Shown here in pieces: positions 14,240-62,359 of a stretch of 64,000 nt of DNA (position 1 is its first letter; each line of letters starts with the position of its first letter). Position numbers and translations under genes: made by a program. The notes under the pieces were generated by a model that ran no database searches, was not told where the DNA came from, and worked only from the letters and a program-made list of their open reading frames with translations. Source of the DNA: Candidatus Micrarchaeia archaeon (lineage in GTDB: Archaea > Micrarchaeota > Micrarchaeia > Burarchaeales > JAVZCV01); the NCBI GenBank assembly GCA_038874215.1, contig JAVZCV010000001.1:6452-70451 (forward strand). The letters run 5' to 3'.

Positions 14240-14785
14240 TTATGCTGGTTCAAGTTGTGCTGAGAGATCACCTATTGCTGCATGTGTGTAGCCCGTGTCT
14301 TTCTCAGCGTAGTAAACGTAGATCTTGCCCCTGTACCTGTCTCCAATACTACCCGATATTTCTGTCTCGGTAGCGCCTCTGCAGCATTTCAGTTTTGTTG
14401 TACCGTCTATTATCTCTGCATCCTGGCCGTTCTGTATATCTATACCAGGACTTAGCTCTGTCCATGTAAAAACGCAATCGGCGTCATCTACCTCATTATT
14501 CATATTGTCGTTCACTGTTGATAGCGTTTGGTCGGTACATGCGACCGCTCTTACAGTTATTGTTTTACCCGTCGCCTGTCCTATTTTAAGTGTTAGAGTG
14601 CCATCTGTTGCAAGCTTATACGCACTGCAACTTATGCCTGGTGTCTTGAACGTGCAGGCTATTGGCGCCTGCGGGTTAAAAACTCCGATATAGAACAGCA
14701 CGGCTACTACAATTACGATCACCAAAATAGCCCAGCCATAGGTCATCAGGTATTCCATGGCAGCTTGACCTTTTCTAAAGTCCAT
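14240..14785 (-). CDS. Pilin-like protein with class-III signal peptide
   Basis: MDFRKGQAAMEYLMTYGWAILVIVIVVAVLFYIGVFNP. Paralog of 39877..40428, sharing …KCC…GDxYRGKIYVYY…LxHxAIxxLS…. Confidence 0.65.
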   Translation of the reverse strand: MDFRKGQAAMEYLMTYGWAILVIVIVVAVLFYIGVFNPQAPIACTFKTPGISCSAYKLATDGTLTLKIGQATGKTITVRAVACTDQTLSTVNDNMNNEVDDADCVFTWTELSPGIDIQNGQDAEIIDGTTKLKCCRGATETEISGSIGDRYRGKIYVYYAEKDTGYTHAAIGDLSAQLEPA

Positions 14786-14921
14786 TTATAACCACCTCGG
14801 GAATTTTATTTAACACAAGAAAGTGTTATAATTTACTGCTTTTTAAATTTTTCTATCGTAAAGCAACTGCTAATTATTTAAGATTGTGTGTAGCATTATT
14901 AATTGCGAATTAGGGTAGGAT

Positions 14922-16574
14922 GTGGGGGGTGAGATTATGAATAATAAAATTCCGACAGAGGCCGCACTGAAAGAATTTTCTGCTGGGTTGAATAGTTTGA
15001 AAGATTCTGGTGGCGAAATCAAATTTGTGGTGATACCTGATATAGTGCTGGATGTGATGGTACCCGTCGGTCGGTCTTACTCGCAGTTTATAGGCGATCT
15101 TTCCGCAATTTACGGCAAGGGTGGGGGCTCAGTACCTTTGGAGATACCTGCGTATTTTAGTCTTGGCGGGAATGCTGCGAAGGTAGCTCTTACGATGGGT
15201 GTTATGGTGCCTGACGGTACTCTTAACGGCAGTATAACTTTTATAACAAGGACTGGGGAGGAATGTCGCGATATTTTTCAGGCTTTTCATAAAAGAGAGG
15301 TGGAGATCCCGCAACGAACTCCCGTTGAGCTCATTGTGGATGGAAGAGATATTGTGGTAAATGGCGAGCCTATTGCTGCGAAAAGTAGAATAAACACTGC
15401 GATAGAGCTTAGCACGAATAATATGCAGAAGGGTGCAAACATCATACTGAGCTATGGGGGAGATAAGGGGTATAAAGCAGACTGGCTTTTCACGATGCAG
15501 TCTGGTTCTAATGCACTTAGCGCTGTAAAAAATGCGACTGCTATAGCGTGCTGTTCTGCCGTTCCCGTAGTGTTTGAGTTGATTAAGAAAAAGGGACTCG
15601 GTGAAATATATGAGGAAACAACTGTATATTTTGATACGAGCTTCAGCATTTCAAAGCTTGAGAACAGCCCAAAAACAGGGGAGCAGATCGTTGAGGCACT
15701 TGCGGTGAAAACTCCTTCTGGAAATCCCGCAGTAAATTATCTATCTGCAAACGAGCAGGAAATAATAGTCGTGGCAAGCGTTCTTGCGAAAAAGCGACTG
15801 GATGCAGGTGCATTGAGCCAAGAAGCTTACGACGGAATGGTGGGGAGCGAAAGTTATGGGGGTTATAAGGTCTTTCGCGGCACACCGTATGATGCAGCCC
15901 TGTACGTGCGAAGAGAATTGGGTGTAGGGGTGATACTGCACACATCAGACTACATGGTGATTTTTGAGACGGGTGCACAAGGAGGTATTTCTAATGTTGT
16001 CCCGAGTTTTGAGATTGAGCCGAAGTTCAGAACGGGAGCGGGCGATACTTTTAACGGTGGGCTTTTCCTCGCTATGGAAGTAATGAGAAAAAAGGGGGCA
16101 TTAACTCCTGAGGAATGCCTTCTCATCGGAACTGCGACTACCTGCTATTATATGGAGACTGGGAAGAGACCCCATGCTGAGGATTTGCGTACATTCGTGC
16201 AAACCCATAGGCTTAGGGAGCTAAGTATGGGGACGATGCAGGGCATCGCAAGCCCGCCGAATCAGCTTACACAAGACCAGATTAATTGGACTAGGAATTT
16301 AATAAGAGCACATAACGCCAAACTCCCCGTAGCGCCGCAACCTTTCCCAGCGCTTGAAATTTATGATAGGGCACTAATAGGGCGTTTGAATGAGAAGGAT
16401 GCAAGGATGATCATTGAAGCGTTAAGTGGGGGTCGTTTTGAATTGGAGGTTGCGGGGTTGCCTTCAGAAAGAGAGAGAAGGGAAAAACTTGAAACTCTGA
16501 AAAACGTGATACGTCAAGAAGCCAGAACGGCTATGCGAAGCGGAGGAATGCGCAGGTTGGCAACAAACAGGTAA
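14922..16574 (+). CDS. PfkB-family carbohydrate/ribokinase-like kinase domain with a C-terminal extension of about 170 aa
   Basis: GGNAAKVA (substrate lid) and the PfkB signature TGAGDTFNGGLFLAM. Total length of 550 aa is unusual for the family. Confidence 0.55.
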   Translation: MGGEIMNNKIPTEAALKEFSAGLNSLKDSGGEIKFVVIPDIVLDVMVPVGRSYSQFIGDLSAIYGKGGGSVPLEIPAYFSLGGNAAKVALTMGVMVPDGTLNGSITFITRTGEECRDIFQAFHKREVEIPQRTPVELIVDGRDIVVNGEPIAAKSRINTAIELSTNNMQKGANIILSYGGDKGYKADWLFTMQSGSNALSAVKNATAIACCSAVPVVFELIKKKGLGEIYEETTVYFDTSFSISKLENSPKTGEQIVEALAVKTPSGNPAVNYLSANEQEIIVVASVLAKKRLDAGALSQEAYDGMVGSESYGGYKVFRGTPYDAALYVRRELGVGVILHTSDYMVIFETGAQGGISNVVPSFEIEPKFRTGAGDTFNGGLFLAMEVMRKKGALTPEECLLIGTATTCYYMETGKRPHAEDLRTFVQTHRLRELSMGTMQGIASPPNQLTQDQINWTRNLIRAHNAKLPVAPQPFPALEIYDRALIGRLNEKDARMIIEALSGGRFELEVAGLPSERERREKLETLKNVIRQEARTAMRSGGMRRLATNR

Positions 16575-16807
16575 GGGTTTAAGAAGACTGCAATGAGAAG
16601 AGACACATTTAAGTATATCTGTTGTTTTTTATTTTACAGATGATGATAAAGGTGATCCCAGAAACCCTTTTCTTTAAAAAAGAAAAGCGTTTCAACGGAA
16701 AAGAAACGCTTTGCGAAAAATAAGGAATGGGTTGATGATGATAGACGGACGGGCTGATGTAAATTAGACTGAGTGGAAAGGAATGGGTTTTAAAAATTAA
16801 ACCAGGT

Positions 16808-17815
16808 TCACTTTTTTATTTGCCTGCTCGTGCTAGAAATCTGTTTTGCTTGGATGGTTCTATCAATAATTTCGTCCTTGGCATTCTCGATTATCTTTAG
16901 TCCGCGGTCAATGGTTTCTGCTTTTTTCTGAACCTCCTCTATTAGTTGCATAAGAATCTGGAGGCTCTTTTTATATTCCCCAATGTCCCCCTCACAAATA
17001 TGGCGCTTATACTCTTCATACAACAAGTATGCCGTGAGATATACGAACCCGTATGGCGTTAATAAGACATTTTTCTTTCTCGCATATTCCATCAACTCTG
17101 GGAAATTCTCTGTTATTGCGGGGGGCACTGCAAGAATGCATTTATCTATCGTGTTTTGCTGATTTTGGTATTTCATCACTTCCGAGATATATTTTTCGAC
17201 CTTTTGTTTGATCTCTTTTTTTAATTGTGATTGTTTGTGTAGGTCATCGGTTTTCTCCAGTTCATCTAAGAAACTAAACACTTCGGGAACCTTGGATCTA
17301 TCGGGATGAATTTCCCATCCCCAAGATCAAATGCGAACTCAACTACACCACCACCAGTAATAACATTTGTTTTGATTAATCCTATCTTTATCGGTTCTTT
17401 CAAATAAAACTTCAGAATTTCCTCACCAGCCATTCCGCGTTTCTTTACCCCGAGCATAAAACCTTGAAATTCCCTCACGGATGAAAACATTTCCTGCATG
17501 ATAACCTGATTCTGTTGTATAAACTCTTGCCATCGTTTTTCTCTCTCCTCTCTCATTTTTTCATTCTCTCTCCTCTCTCATTTTTTCACGTTCTTTTTCT
17601 ATTTCTTCGCGACTTTTTTCCAGATCAAAAATCTGCGTTTTCATTTCTACTATCTGAGAGTTTAATTGGCTGAGAAGAGTGGTTTGGTTGCGTAGGTCTG
17701 CTTTCTCGTATACTCTTATTCTACTGGATAGGTAACCTAATATAAACCCGATAACTAATCCTACCACAAGAAAAACTGCAGAAAGAAAAATAGCCAATAA
17801 ATCCAAAAGCGCCAT
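16808..17815 (-). pseudogene. rmuC: Disrupted RmuC-family (DNA recombination protein) gene split into three ORFs
   Basis: ORF A (17561..17815) carries a transmembrane segment plus coiled coil. ORF B (17266..17556) ends in …KFIPIDPRFP, resembling RmuC VIDAKFPLE. ORF C (16808..17281, GTG start) has …ILAVPPAITENF…LLTPYGFVYLTAYLL, resembling RmuC FVxMFxPSEa…PttL. The A/B break coincides with a 25-nt tandem duplication, and the B/C break is a second frame change. Confidence 0.5.
17539..17588. repeat. Perfect 25-nt tandem duplication (ttctctctcctctctcattttttca x2)
   Basis: Read directly from the sequence: 17539-17563 and 17564-17588 are identical. Removing one copy restores the reading frame between ORF A and ORF B. 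Confidence 0.9.
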
Positions 17816-17989
17816 ACAACCACCCCAACTTATCTTATGTTTCAGTATGTTAAAAATATGTGATACGGGCTATTAAATGGCTATGTGTCTCTTTTCCTTT
17901 GGGGAGCATCTCGCCACTCTTACTCTATAGCCACGTGATGTTTCATTAAGAAAACAAGCTGCGCATTGGTAGAAAAGCATTACGCGAGT

Positions 17990-19681
17990 TTAGCGACGCC
18001 TGATGAAAACCTCGTGAATATGCCTGGCTATGTCCCAAAGCAACAAGGCAGAGACAAAAAGTGGGATTATAGAAAGCTGCTTGAAAGCCTCAAGCCGTAG
18101 GATGGAGAGCAGGAAGGGAAGATAAGTAGCCCCTACAAGACAAAAGAGCAACAGTATCGCATTTCTCATTATTTCCATTCCGAGTTGCTTCCTTTTTCCC
18201 CGAGCATGGAGAAAAGAGTCCGCCAGCTCATCAAGAATGTTGTGGAGCGCATTAATGATTGTTATAAGCGGGAATATTGATGCAATTACTATGAGCGCTA
18301 TAAAGCCGTAGGCAAAAAAAATGTACGTGTTGTTTGGAGGCAGGTATGGAATTAGGGATAGGGTGAGGAAGATGCCGCCCCCCATAACAACTAAAAGCGA
18401 TGCATTCGCAACGAGCTTCTTTCCGTTGTGTATGAACGCAAGGAAGAACCTTCCGCCGGGCTCAAAGTTCCTAACTACGGCGCCAAAATACCGAGATATT
18501 TCGAGCATACGTAAGAGTAGTCCATAAGGCATCGCATTTATGATGAGTGAATGAATGAACTCTGTCCTATTTATTGCCTCAGAGGTTATAACTGCGCTCA
18601 TTAGAACGATGACAGATGTTATCCCGACGATATCAAAAGAGACGAGCTCGCTTGCCTCGCGCGCAAGCAAAAGAGAGAATTCGCCAGTAGGTATCATGGC
18701 GAGCCCCGCAAAAACCGCTGATTTACCACCCAAGCCAACGAAATATGTGCTCAGGCCCATACCAAAAAACTTTGAGAGTGTAGTGATGATGAGAAGTGTG
18801 AGAAGAAGAGGCAAGTTCTGGAGCAATAAAAGAGGCTTAACGAACATGCCCATCGTAAGAAAGAATAGGGCAGTAAACACAGATGTGAAAGGCTTTATCC
18901 TTTTTTCCATTTCCCCACCACTCGGCAGGGTCATTACTATGCTTCCTGCGACAAATGCGCCAATTGATGGAGCGAGGCCCAGAGCGGCAGCTGCATAGCT
19001 GAGCCCGATAGCCATCGCAACTGCGGCAAGCGAGAGAGATTCGTCTGTCCCATATTTCAATATCCAGCAGACAATACCTCTGAGCACTCTTTGAAGCAAA
19101 ACGTATACGAGAGCAAGAAGTGAAAGAGCGATTATGAATGGTAAAAACAAGTCCTGCGAGCTCTGGATGCTTGCAGAACCAGAGGAGAAGAAAGCAAGAA
19201 GGAAGATGGCGAATACATCTTCAAGAATGAGAGTTGCGATTAGCAGGTTTGCCTCCCTTCTATTTTTAATCCCCTTATCGGAAAGCATGCGTGCAACTAT
19301 TGCTGTGCTCGTAACAGAGAATATTGCACCAACTACAAGCGATTCAAAAAGCGATAGTCCTGCCAGCAATGCTGTTTCGTATGTAGCAACAAACACGATG
19401 GATATTTTCAATACGCTGACCAGTATTGCACGGAGACCGCATCGCAGAAGCTTGCCTAAGCTGAACTCAATCCCTATGGTGAAGAGAAGAAGCACGGCGC
19501 CTATTTCTGCCAACATGTTGATGAAATCCGTATGTGCAACCAAACCGAGCATATTCGGGCCTATGAGTGCTCCAGTTATGAGAAGGCCTAAAACGGTGGG
19601 CTGACCGAACCTGTTTGCTACTATGCCGCCAACAAGGGCGAAAACGGAGATTATACCCAGCTCCGCAATAAAGTCCACCAT
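17990..19681 (-). CDS. Monovalent cation:proton antiporter (CPA/Kef-type Na+/H+ exchanger family)
   Basis: About 12 transmembrane helices with typical exchanger segments (…LLITGALIGPNMLGLV…, …GIEFSLGKL…); 563 aa. Confidence 0.75.
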   Translation of the reverse strand: MVDFIAELGIISVFALVGGIVANRFGQPTVLGLLITGALIGPNMLGLVAHTDFINMLAEIGAVLLLFTIGIEFSLGKLLRCGLRAILVSVLKISIVFVATYETALLAGLSLFESLVVGAIFSVTSTAIVARMLSDKGIKNRREANLLIATLILEDVFAIFLLAFFSSGSASIQSSQDLFLPFIIALSLLALVYVLLQRVLRGIVCWILKYGTDESLSLAAVAMAIGLSYAAAALGLAPSIGAFVAGSIVMTLPSGGEMEKRIKPFTSVFTALFFLTMGMFVKPLLLLQNLPLLLTLLIITTLSKFFGMGLSTYFVGLGGKSAVFAGLAMIPTGEFSLLLAREASELVSFDIVGITSVIVLMSAVITSEAINRTEFIHSLIINAMPYGLLLRMLEISRYFGAVVRNFEPGGRFFLAFIHNGKKLVANASLLVVMGGGIFLTLSLIPYLPPNNTYIFFAYGFIALIVIASIFPLITIINALHNILDELADSFLHARGKRKQLGMEIMRNAILLLFCLVGATYLPFLLSILRLEAFKQLSIIPLFVSALLLWDIARHIHEVFIRRR

Positions 19682-36580: not shown

Positions 36581-37309
36581 ATGGCTTTGCAAAACGGTGA
36601 TTTCGTAGAGATAGAATACACGGCAAAAAAGGCTTCTGATGGTGTCGTTTTTGATACGACAGATGAGGCAAAGGCGAGAAGTGCTGGGATATATGCAGAG
36701 AATACACGGTATGGTCCCTTACTCGTAGTGGTGGGGAAGGGGCATGTTGTAAGCGGGCTTGATGAAGCGCTTGTTGGCATGGAAGTTGGGCAGGAGAGGA
36801 GTGTTGAAGTTCTTCCTGAAAAGGGTTTCGGGAAAAAGGACCCGAAACTCCTCCGCGTTATGTCCCTTAATGAATTCAGAAAGCAGAGGATAGAACCATA
36901 TCCTGGCATGCCAGTCACGCTTGATGGTATTTCTGCTGTTGTGAAGAGCGTGAGCGGCGGCAGGGTGATGGTTGACATGAACCATCCGCTTGCAGGTGAA
37001 AAGCTCATTTATGATGTAAAAGTTGTTAGAAAGCTTGAGACAGAGGAGGAGAAGATAAGGGGGCTCCTCTCCTCTGAGAAATTGGATGGCGAGATAAAAT
37101 TTGGGGATGTTGTTACTATAAGTATTAAGAATGCAAAAAATGATGTTTCGTATTTTATAGCGAAGTCAAACTTTCTCCGAAGGCTTTTTGAGCTTATGGA
37201 CATGAAGAAGGTTAGAGTAGTTGAGGATTTCGTGAAAGACGAGAAAAAACCGACTGAATCGGAGAATGAAGAAAAGCAAGCTGAAACAGAAAAAGAGAAG
37301 ACGGATTAG
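36581..37309 (+). CDS. FKBP-type peptidyl-prolyl cis-trans isomerase (archaeal long FKBP/SlyD-like with IF domain)
   Basis: MALQNGDFVEIEYTAK…DGVVFDTT… GKGHVVSGLDEALVGMEVGQER… LAGEKLIYDVKVV. Start chosen to avoid overlap with the divergent gene. Confidence 0.75.
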   Translation: MALQNGDFVEIEYTAKKASDGVVFDTTDEAKARSAGIYAENTRYGPLLVVVGKGHVVSGLDEALVGMEVGQERSVEVLPEKGFGKKDPKLLRVMSLNEFRKQRIEPYPGMPVTLDGISAVVKSVSGGRVMVDMNHPLAGEKLIYDVKVVRKLETEEEKIRGLLSSEKLDGEIKFGDVVTISIKNAKNDVSYFIAKSNFLRRLFELMDMKKVRVVEDFVKDEKKPTESENEEKQAETEKEKTD

Positions 37310-39786
37310 TTAGCAGTTGTTCTTCTTCCCATTGCATTTTTTTGCGCTTTTGCATTCGCAGGGTTGCGCTTGGGATATGGCAAGCGTTGCGCATTCCTTC
37401 TCAATTCCAGCTCCTCGGATGTCAGTGGGCTTACAGAGACGGCGCTTGTGGTTGCGGTTATCTCTTTTCCTCTCGCACCGACTATCACCACGCTTTCTCT
37501 CGCTTTTATGCTAACATCTCCATCAACATTTTCATCAACATACACGGCGCTTTTTTCCGCATCTATCAGCAACCTGCCCTTCTCGGTCGGTTTTACGAGG
37601 GCTCCTTTCTCCTTATCTATAAACTCCCCCAATAGGTCCGTGTAGTCTGGGCCCATGCTTTCAAGAGCCCTCACTGCTTCAAGCGCGATATCCGATCCAA
37701 GAGGTATATCGTGTTTTTTAAATAGAATGACGATGTTGTTCGCTACATCGAGTTTTCTCTCATCACTTATATATCCTCTTGCACACATTTTTCCGAGAGC
37801 GCGGATTGCTGCAGCAACATTCTTCTCGTTTTTCGGCAGTTCGCCGCCATCCTTTGCCTCCCATTCTGCCCCAAGAACAACATCAAGCAGAGGCGCCCGC
37901 GCGTTCTCGCCCATACGAGAGGTAGAGATTGAAAGTAGTGAAAGAATTGTCTCATCACCTTCGTACCCAAGTCGTTTACATGCATCCTCAGCAACACGTT
38001 GGAATCTTTTGCCGAGCATTCCAAGAGCGCCCGCTGCCAGGACGGAGAAAAACTTGCGTTTATCATTGAAAAACTGTATTAGAAAATCCATTTCCTGCGG
38101 CGTTCCGATTTCTCCCAGAAGAGGAAGCAATTTGTGCGAGCCTGCACTGCGTTGCACTATCTCGTTTCTTATTTCTCTTATGCTGTATGGGGCAAGTGTT
38201 TTAAGCCCTTCGTATGCCTCCCTATGTACGTAGCGTTTAGAAGGATCAAGAAGCGCAATAATTAGAGGTTTAACCGCCTCAGAATTTCCACTTGCGCCGA
38301 GAGCAATAGCGGCGAATTTTGCAACTTCATGGCTGTATCCGTTTAGTAGTTTTATAAGATTATTCACATCTCTCAACCTGCCGAGGGCGCTTAGCGCATC
38401 TTCCTTATACGCATAGTTATCATCTTCTATTAGTTCAAGTAGTATTGGTATCGCATTTTCAGCGCAGTTAACAAGACCGTCAAATGCGGCTTGCCTTATC
38501 TCGTCGTCATTTGAACGTGTATATTGCAAAATTTCATTCGGTTCTCCTCTAAACGAGCGCAGCTCTTCGATTCCCCTTCTTCTTTTTTCCCATGGGTCAC
38601 GGCTTTTAAGCAGAGTGTTTAGATTAACCTTGTCCCCGGTAGCTGCAATCTGAAGTTTTAGGCTATTTGCGTTTTTCCTTTCACTTTTAGGCGCCCGCCT
38701 CAAATCAATTTCACCTCTGCTGAAGCCCTTAGCCCGTGCGTATATGTCATTTATCCTCGGTTGGCTAGCTTCAAGGATCCTCGGTTGGCTAGCTTCAAGG
38801 CGGCAAGCACGGGAGAGATATGCAAGAATGAGTTGCTCTCCAAGAGTTATGTCTATCCCTTTTGTTTTTGCAAGGCGTGCGAGCATGACCGTCGCGATTA
38901 TGGCATCGTGGGAAACTACGGGCGGGACTGGTTCTGCCCTTCTAACCATCAGTATGCCGTCGTCTTTTCTTTTTGTTTTTTTAAACGGAAGTGTGAAGGT
39001 TTGACCATTTTCGCATAGTGAGAGGTATTCTCTGCTAAAAAGGAAGAAACTGGTTTCAAATTTTTTAGAAAGTGCTTTGATCGCTTCAACCGCATTTTTG
39101 TGGTTCAAGTTACACATTTTTGCGAATTGGATTGCATCGTCTTTCTCTATAAAAACAAGCGCAACCCGACCCTGTAATAATCCTAAGTTGGTCATTTGGG
39201 CTATGTTTATATCGTTGTATTCTGCGTGGTATTCCATTGTTGCGAAGATGGGTGAATTAATCCCATTAGAAGCGTTGGCGATTTGCGAGGATATCGGTGC
39301 GCTCAGGCGCGTGAAAATTGCAGTCGCATTTTTCAATTTTCCAACATGCCCCATAACTTCTTCTAACGATAACTCGTCTCGGGGTGTGTCAAAACGAGCG
39401 TTTTGTTTTCCGCTTATGACAACTCTTGTTATTCCCTTGCCACGTGGTAGAATGAGCTCTATTGCCTTTACGCCTTCCCTTGGTAGTTTGTGGGCTCTCG
39501 CATATAATCCTTCCCGCAGTTCATCGCTTGCCTTTGCCATTAATGTTATATCTATGCTTCCATTGCCTCGCAGGTATGCGAGTGCAAGAGCTACGCCAGC
39601 AGCGCCGCTTATATCCTCTGCACTCCTTCCGCTCATCGTTCCTGTTCCATGTGCCATCGCTGTATCAAAAGCATTAAGACCAACCACATCAGGCATGCAC
39701 ACTATCTGGGGGCTTTCATCACTCCTTTGGTGTATGGCCTCTGAGAGTTTGAGGACGGCACTCACGGGGTCTAATACGGTTGGCAT
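37306..39786 (-). CDS. Large HEAT/PBS-lyase-repeat protein with an uncharacterised N-terminal domain
   Basis: Central and C-terminal HEAT-like repeats (…EIRQAAFDGLVNCAENAIPILLELIEDDNYAYKEDALSALGRL…). The N-terminal domain (…IVCMPDVVGLNAFDTAMAHGTGTMSG…) has no assignable family. Contains an in-frame 24-nt tandem repeat. Confidence 0.5.
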   Translation of the reverse strand: MPTVLDPVSAVLKLSEAIHQRSDESPQIVCMPDVVGLNAFDTAMAHGTGTMSGRSAEDISGAAGVALALAYLRGNGSIDITLMAKASDELREGLYARAHKLPREGVKAIELILPRGKGITRVVISGKQNARFDTPRDELSLEEVMGHVGKLKNATAIFTRLSAPISSQIANASNGINSPIFATMEYHAEYNDINIAQMTNLGLLQGRVALVFIEKDDAIQFAKMCNLNHKNAVEAIKALSKKFETSFFLFSREYLSLCENGQTFTLPFKKTKRKDDGILMVRRAEPVPPVVSHDAIIATVMLARLAKTKGIDITLGEQLILAYLSRACRLEASQPRILEASQPRINDIYARAKGFSRGEIDLRRAPKSERKNANSLKLQIAATGDKVNLNTLLKSRDPWEKRRRGIEELRSFRGEPNEILQYTRSNDDEIRQAAFDGLVNCAENAIPILLELIEDDNYAYKEDALSALGRLRDVNNLIKLLNGYSHEVAKFAAIALGASGNSEAVKPLIIALLDPSKRYVHREAYEGLKTLAPYSIREIRNEIVQRSAGSHKLLPLLGEIGTPQEMDFLIQFFNDKRKFFSVLAAGALGMLGKRFQRVAEDACKRLGYEGDETILSLLSISTSRMGENARAPLLDVVLGAEWEAKDGGELPKNEKNVAAAIRALGKMCARGYISDERKLDVANNIVILFKKHDIPLGSDIALEAVRALESMGPDYTDLLGEFIDKEKGALVKPTEKGRLLIDAEKSAVYVDENVDGDVSIKARESVVIVGARGKEITATTSAVSVSPLTSEELELRRNAQRLPYPKRNPANAKAQKNAMGRRTTAN
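38755..38802. repeat. 24-nt tandem duplication (22/24 identical) encoding LEASQPRI x2 inside the HEAT-repeat gene
   Basis: cctcggttggctagcttcaaggat followed by cctcggttggctagcttcaaggcg. Confidence 0.85.
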
Positions 39787-48824: not shown

Positions 48825-48943
48825 TGGACTCGCCGGGAATTGAACCCGGAGTCTCTGCCTTTTGCTAAACTTTTTTGAGCAGTTTTTGATCAACCCAAAA
48901 AAGTTTGTGCGAAGGCAGCGTCTTACCATTCGACTACGAGCCC
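48825..48943 (-). tRNA. tRNA-Ala(CGC) with a 47-nt intron at 37/38
   Basis: Minus-strand GGGCTCG…CGAGTCC+A acceptor carrying the G3:U70 Ala identity pair. Anticodon stem CTGCC/GGCAG with loop TTCGCA|A. T-arm CCGGG-TTCAATT-CCCGG. No encoded CCA. Confidence 0.6.
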
Positions 48944-62229: not shown

Positions 62230-62268
62230 TTTTGCACCTATTAGATAATATGTGAAAGTTTTAAAAAG

Positions 62269-62359
62269 CGCCCCCACTGGGATTCGAACCCAGATTACAG
62301 GCTTGCTCCACTGTGAGAAATGCCGGAGGCCTGCGTCCTGTCCTTTGGACGATAGGGGC
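62269..62359 (-). tRNA. tRNA-Arg(CCG) with a 19-nt intron at 37/38
   Basis: Minus strand: acceptor GCCCCTA/TGGGGGC plus G; D-arm GTCC-AAAGGACA-GGAC; anticodon stem CAGGC/GCCTG with loop CTCCGG|A; T-arm CTGGG-TTCGAAT-CCCAG. Confidence 0.55.

Follow-up and report, generated by a model that had tools for sequence, protein, structure and literature searches.

RmuC proteins are built of an N-terminal membrane helix, a coiled coil and an α/β domain, and their PD-(D/E)XK signature was described by Kosinski et al. (PMC1189080). In a survey of 2012 the family is bacterial and mostly gammaproteobacterial (PMC3424549). ShdA, the effector of the Pseudomonas anti-phage system Shield, is membrane-anchored and carries a cytoplasmic RmuC nuclease domain; Shield is reported by its authors only from Pseudomonas (PMC10270631). 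As for the way in which genes are broken, spontaneous mutations of the archaeon S. acidocaldarius regularly include tandem duplications, and 'large indels' (deletions and tandem duplications) make up about 10–15% of the events in its pyrE spectra (PMC7785828).

We analysed a 64-kb stretch of a Candidatus Micrarchaeia (DPANN archaeon) genome, the whole of which is called the window below. Three consecutive minus-strand ORFs of 84, 96 and 157 aa lie in 16808..17815 (Table 1), and together they are very probably a genuine and evolutionarily young pseudogene of the RmuC family. The repaired protein shows the same order of transmembrane helix, coiled coil and α/β nuclease core as E. coli RmuC (YigN, b3832; PF02646/COG1322) (PMC1189080), and the two share the GxxGE motif, an acidic residue in β2 and the (I/V)D-x-K motif. 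It is shorter, with 327 aa and a shorter coiled coil against 475 aa in E. coli RmuC, and, unlike the latter, the present copy is a pseudogene in a DPANN archaeon. ShdA is an architectural analogue, not a family assignment. The locus also resembles the short gene-inactivating tandem duplications that recur in S. acidocaldarius (PMC7785828). However, those were seen in laboratory-selected mutants, while here a natural consensus allele is found in environmental assemblies, together with a second hit.

In the NCBI annotation, fragment 3 is QXP42_00135 (122 aa only) and fragment 2 is QXP42_00140, each entered as "hypothetical protein". The putative upstream expression signals of the rmuC pseudogene (17820..17860) are apparently intact as far as the letters tell. 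A scan for sigma-70 promoters and terminators gave nothing over shuffled background, but these are bacterial models and inapplicable to an archaeon. The G+C content of the region 16500..18000 is 0.38, compared with a window average of 0.454 and 0.46–0.48 in the flanks; either the Lys/Glu-rich coiled coil or a foreign origin could account for this.

Table 1. Positions of the pseudogene, its fragments, its lesions and the closest partial homolog (window coordinates unless another sequence is named)
Feature	Position	Strand	Remarks
Whole rmuC-family pseudogene	16808..17815	-	Conceptual repair gives 984 nt, 327 codons + stop
Fragment 1 (84 aa)	17815..17561	-	Native residues 1-84: N-terminal transmembrane helix and first part of the coiled coil; terminator TGA 17563..17561
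Fragment 2 (96 aa)	17556..17266	-	Native residues 79-165, then out-of-frame tail PRFPKCLVS + stop; end of the coiled coil, GxxGE helix, β1-β3 with E151 and D165
Fragment 3	16808..17294	-	Native frame for residues 166-327; mechanical ORF 17281..16808, 157 aa; K167, α2, β4, β5, C-terminal helices
First lesion, copy 1 (plus-strand order), unit TTCTCTCTCCTCTCTCATTTTTTCA	17539..17563	.	Holds ORF1 stop 17563..17561 and ORF2 ATG 17556..17554
First lesion, copy 2	17564..17588	.	Identical to copy 1; +25 nt, frame shift of +1
Second lesion, 1-nt loss (T or C)	17295/17296	-	Between Asp165 GAT and Ser166 TCC, IPID-S-K motif
Putative Shine-Dalgarno-like GGGGTGG	17826..17820	-	4 nt 5' of ATG; read by eye
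Putative A/T-rich TATA-like ACATATTTTTAACA	about 17861..17848	-	Read by eye
P0004, closest partial homolog	L003:3715..4672		ENA ERZ27247591, k141_754539

Family of the repaired protein

The repaired CDS has no further interruption. The translated protein matches PF02646 with 57.4 bits in a single stretch, its residues 51-326 aligning with profile positions 3-282 of 291. This is above the gathering cutoff of 26 bits, while the separate fragments reach only 14.9 and 23.2 bits and stay under it. The first-pass annotation of this DNA had read the three ORFs jointly as RmuC-like and had named this very search as its own test; its style of repair, which reads D-P-R-F-P at the second break, gives 51.1 bits, so the assignment is sustained with either version, and the refined D-S-K repair scores higher. 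Among 5.8 billion proteins we find 37 relatives, all with precomputed PF02646 and with E values down to 9e-101. The best relative shows 53% identity at 96% coverage of the query; a partial gene call among them has 55%. Several of the relatives are named "DNA recombination protein RmuC" in their source. The alignment of the homologs (A1) is gap-free at both repaired junctions.

The relation to E. coli RmuC is visible at the level of profiles and of single sequences. A profile of 30 family members (A2) aligned with the E. coli K-12 RmuC core gives an hhalign probability of 90.7%, with an E value of 1.2e-6 over 150 columns, and it pairs GMAGEEIL with GNWGEVVL, VEFAFDL with PDVIVRL, GKFIPIDSK with GKDVVIDAK, ILAVPPA with VLMFIPVE and LLTPYGF with MLVSPTTL. 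Pairwise BLASTP of the repaired protein with E. coli RmuC gives an E value of 0.002 at ~25% identity. The correspondence with E. coli motifs that the first-pass annotation had drawn therefore holds, although the letters which it quoted are only approximate; the actual E. coli segments read VIDAKMTLV and VLMFIPVE...MLVSPTTL. Residues E123, E151, D165 and K167 of the repaired translation fall in columns that are invariant across the 30 sequences. D-S-K of the repaired protein aligns with D-A-K of E. coli, and the actual DNA cuts this motif between D165 and S166.

The transmembrane segment and the coiled coil, both claimed at first reading, are borne out by hydropathy and by the predicted structure. 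The N-terminus is strongly hydrophobic; in residues 7-25 the Kyte-Doolittle mean for 19 residues rises to as much as 2.94. The AlphaFold2 model shows helices at residues 2-38 and 42-114 and a compact core after them. Modelled alone, the core has a pLDDT of 92.2 and a pTM of 0.87, and its elements follow in the order α, β-β-β, α, β, α, β. In a Foldseek comparison with the PDB, restriction-endonuclease-like proteins appear near the top (SfsA, NucS, Card1, VC1899, NGO0050 and XPF-like domains), but none is significant (best E 0.022), and a search of the PDB by sequence finds no RmuC structure. Family membership rests on the sequence evidence and not on this fold comparison. A working RmuC member has an intact ORF; here two frame-breaking lesions interrupt it, and we therefore class the locus with the pseudogenes of the RmuC family, not with its working members. 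No second RmuC copy is present within the 64-kb window.

Two frame-breaking lesions

The first lesion is a perfect tandem duplication of 25 nt. The array at 17539..17588 has a period of 25, 2.0 copies, 100% matches and 0 indels, and it is the single array that TRF reports in the region. On the coding strand it reads ...GAACG[TGAAAAAATGAGAGAGGAGAGAGAA][TGAAAAAATGAGAGAGGAGAGAGAA]AAACGATGG..., and it lies in a purine-rich stretch that codes for ...EKEREKMREEREK... within the coiled coil. The first break falls exactly at the duplication, since the second copy (coding strand) supplies with its first three bases the TGA that ends ORF1. When one copy is deleted, ORF1 and ORF2 join in frame (...EKEREKMREEREKRWQEF...), and removal of either copy gives ...EKEREKMREEREKRWQEFIQQ.... 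The repaired junction is gap-free in all 11 homologs of alignment A1, the closest of which reads EKERAKNSEEREKRWKEFITNQ. An ancestral state with both copies and 1 nt less was also considered and is rejected: with an HMM of the 37 homologs it scores 361.1 bits, compared with 372.5 bits for the single-copy repair. In 10 first-order Markov simulations of the 64-kb window no perfect tandem duplication with a period >9 appears, and the 25-nt duplication is thus not a matter of chance.

The second lesion is the loss of a single base inside the catalytic D-x-K motif. Each of the 4 bases was inserted at every position of 17240-17345, and the stop-free translations were scored with the HMM of 37 homologs, from which the window sequence was excluded. 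The highest score, 372.5 bits, is obtained when a T or C is put back at 17295/17296; other insertion positions give ~369. The restored base turns GAT-CCA-AGG (D-P-R) into GAT-TCC-AAG (D-S-K), giving ...GDGKFIPIDSKVPEVFSFLDELEK..., so that on the minus strand the base is missing at GAT|TCC, in ..IPID|SKVPEVF... A frameshift in the CCC run (FP|EV), the simplest fix, was dropped in favour of ID|SK after HMM scoring. A 2-nt insertion as the second lesion was also rejected; its repair by deletion of two bases reaches 362.0 bits at most, 10–11 bits worse. Both breaks thus lie where the first-pass annotation had seen them, the first exactly at the duplication, where deleting one copy restores the frame, and the second, which it had put near 17270-17310, now at a defined position. 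In the model of the core this position is at the end of β3, between Asp165 and Lys167; E123, E151 and D165 are left on fragment 2, and the catalytic lysine and the remaining fold are on fragment 3.

The spacing of the fragments raises the question of whether the gene is split or recoded and still yields an active nuclease, either from fragments translated separately, by termination and reinitiation, or from fragments joined by ribosomal frameshifting. ORF2 begins with an ATG only 4 nt past the TGA of ORF1, within the same 25-nt copy and preceded by a GGAG-containing purine tract; the putative upstream signals look intact by eye; and +25 and -1 add up to a net length change of +24 nt, which leaves ORF3 and ORF1 in one frame. 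Against this, the frame shared by ORF1 and ORF3 contains 4 stops in the 96 codons between the lesions, and mutual compensation of the two lesions is rejected on this ground. The second break parts D165 from K167 of the catalytic motif and β3 from α2 of a compact fold, no homolog is split there, and no slippery heptamer is seen at the site by eye. The one homolog that seems short, P0004 (223 aa, 55% identity), was considered as a second truncated relative and rejected as a start-codon miscall; its upstream in-frame sequence encodes a membrane helix and a coiled coil (MVDTLTIIGILAGF...), and the gene caller chose a late ATG. We regard a functional split gene as extremely unlikely.

In the pseudogene reading, the ancestral protein would have been anchored in the membrane at its N-terminus and have had a coiled coil and a nuclease core of PD-(D/E)XK type, and two independent mutations each destroy its reading frame. 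The blunt, perfect 25-bp duplication shifts the frame by +1 and places a TGA exactly at the junction. The base lost between the Asp and Ser codons parts E123, E151 and D165 from Lys167 and the second half of the fold. A full-length nuclease would then be impossible, and the locus could yield at most an 84-aa membrane/coiled-coil stub and perhaps short fragments. Any protein made from it would most likely be non-functional.

Reproducibility of the lesions and age of the inactivation

The sequence comes from a metagenome-assembled genome, and the duplication lies within a low-complexity pyrimidine/purine tract, so the gene might in principle be intact and one or both lesions might stem from the assembler or from systematic read errors. 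The same three ORFs are found on Logan contig SRR30574052_55934, which corresponds to window 14345..18443 (4099 nt) with 2 SNPs and 0 gaps and carries both 25-nt copies as well as the 1-nt loss. An assembler artefact is unlikely because both lesions recur without gaps in this separately built assembly, made with other software. The reads behind the NCBI genome and the Logan contig may be the same or overlap, in which case the two assemblies are independent only as to the assembler. Logan assembles with k=31. Since the 25-nt duplication (a 50-nt array) creates no repeated 30-mers, a k=31 de Bruijn graph should not be able to invent it; the array also fits within one short read and should offer no repeated k-mer that would loop the graph. 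The 1-nt loss lies outside any long homopolymer (TT to T, or TCC-adjacent). The other genes of the densely packed window are long and unbroken (1127, 1079, 873 and 826 aa), which shows that pervasive frameshift errors are not present in this assembly. Taken with these observations, a sequencing or assembly artefact is highly improbable.

The two differences between the assemblies, at 15308 and 16275, fall in a 550-aa Khk-like gene (14922..16574, plus strand), where one is synonymous (I129) and the other gives D452N. They point to variation at the level of strains or to consensus sequences that differ from one assembly to the other. The lesions are common to two consensus sequences with 2 SNPs nearby and may therefore predate a little of the strain divergence and be slightly older than the latest variation between strains.

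The inactivation appears to be recent. The 25-nt copies are identical, and no further stops or frameshifts are found after repair. The repaired protein keeps 61 of 69 conserved columns (>=90%), a fraction of 0.88, and the nearest intact relatives keep 0.75–0.88 in leave-one-out comparison; the few deviations are conservative (R/K, F/W, E/D, V/T). Conserved residues are thus kept as well as in the nearest intact relatives, which fits a recent inactivation.

The closest intact relatives are only 53–55% identical, and for this reason we infer the ancestral state from distant homologs. An exact search of genome contigs for the repaired junction gives 0 matches. A related-locus search of genome and metagenome contigs for a sister strain or an intact allele gave pattern matches but no confirmed relative, and the protein search gave no relative above 55% identity. 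The same protein search missed the window's own fragments, though they are in the collection, and the missing intact, near-identical allele is for that reason weak evidence. The contig of one relative, P0001, is 909,730 bp long and also has a gene for PTH2 (PF01981), which we take to be the archaeal/eukaryotic-type peptidyl-tRNA hydrolase; because of it, the source of P0001 is probably another small archaeal genome.

The neighbours of the pseudogene are ordinary chromosomal genes: SMC, four proteins without a Pfam match, a Khk-like kinase, a Na+/H+ exchanger, an iron-dependent repressor fused to FeoA, and FeoB. The locus lies between the genes for the Na+/H+ exchanger and the Khk-like kinase. 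While the window copy is found among housekeeping genes, the nearest intact relatives (loci L001, L003 and L004) have neighbours of mobile-element or defence type, including a DDE transposase, a PDDEXK_1 gene with a CARF/Csa3-like gene, DEAD/ResIII/MZB helicases, and TraC-like and DUF87 ATPases. A search with PADLOC (PADLOC-DB 2.0.0, E up to 0.1) gives no match to an ShdA/RmuC-type defence system, which would count against Shield only if that database includes Shield models. The only matches are weak ones to LmuB and LeoBC, at E values of about 1e-3 and 0.035, which we take to be coiled-coil matches. A reading as a defence system is not supported, with no real PADLOC match, housekeeping neighbours and no defence island. 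Elsewhere in the window, a tRNA gene of 119 nt at 48825..48943 (minus strand) is detected by Rfam and missed by ARAGORN, and a tRNA-Gly(TCC) gene at 62268..62359 (minus strand) has an unusual length of 92 nt. tRNA introns are common in archaea, and both of these long genes probably carry one.

Origin of the duplication and meaning of the pseudogene

To the first-pass annotation the event looked like a very recent disruption mediated by slippage. The recent part stands, though indirectly, by the identical copies, the lack of extra stops or frameshifts and the conserved residues; the slippage part is less secure. A GA-rich tract of low complexity makes slippage plausible, yet microhomology would be expected at the junction after classic slipped-strand mispairing between direct repeats. 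The 25-nt copies extend by 0 bases on either side, i.e. the junction has zero microhomology, and slippage is therefore not demonstrated. More generally, the duplication would have arisen as an error of replication or repair.

A second perfect tandem duplication is observed at 38753..38800 (24 nt x 2.0, unit ATCCTCGGTTGGCTAGCTTCAAGG), and its junction likewise lacks microhomology. The duplication keeps the frame of the minus-strand ORF 37306..39786, so that the encoded HEAT-repeat protein of 826 aa has LEASQPRI in duplicate. An exact look-up for a Logan version of this stretch gave no matching products. This second event suggests that such duplications are not rare in the lineage, and perfect tandem duplications can revert precisely via recombination between the copies. 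The 25-nt duplication could accordingly be gained and lost as a reversible on/off switch, or the population could be heterogeneous, with a working gene in part of it. However, the 1-nt loss is not part of any long repeat, would not easily revert and would keep the gene off regardless of the number of copies; moreover, the two-copy state is the consensus in both assemblies. Such a switch is very improbable, and a pseudogene is the reading that we retain.

Fill-in and re-ligation of breaks staggered by ~24–25 nt, rather than ordinary slippage, may be a candidate process for the 24/25-nt pair. We consider it unlikely that the blunt pair is a lineage-specific mutational footprint, and the same holds for a related idea in which the duplication came first, a toxic nuclease resulted and the catalytic hit was selected. 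In that order of events, reinitiation at the ATG 4 nt downstream would, speculatively, release an un-anchored and genotoxic RmuC nuclease, which in turn might select for a second hit exactly in the catalytic motif. The toxicity is assumed by analogy with ShdA, whose forms lacking the anchor could not be cloned (PMC10270631). The blunt 24/25-nt duplications are the sole hint of something less ordinary, and two events are too few for a claim.

The understanding of RmuC or of pseudogenisation is unchanged by this locus, which adds one more member, an inactivated one, to a known family. Its value for annotation is that the three fragments together are one rmuC pseudogene. It illustrates neatly how genes are still being lost from a small DPANN genome, and the ancestral sequence is exactly reconstructable, which would allow the intact protein to be made again by synthesis. 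The locus also shows that this archaeal lineage has a short RmuC subfamily, with anchor, coiled coil and nuclease.
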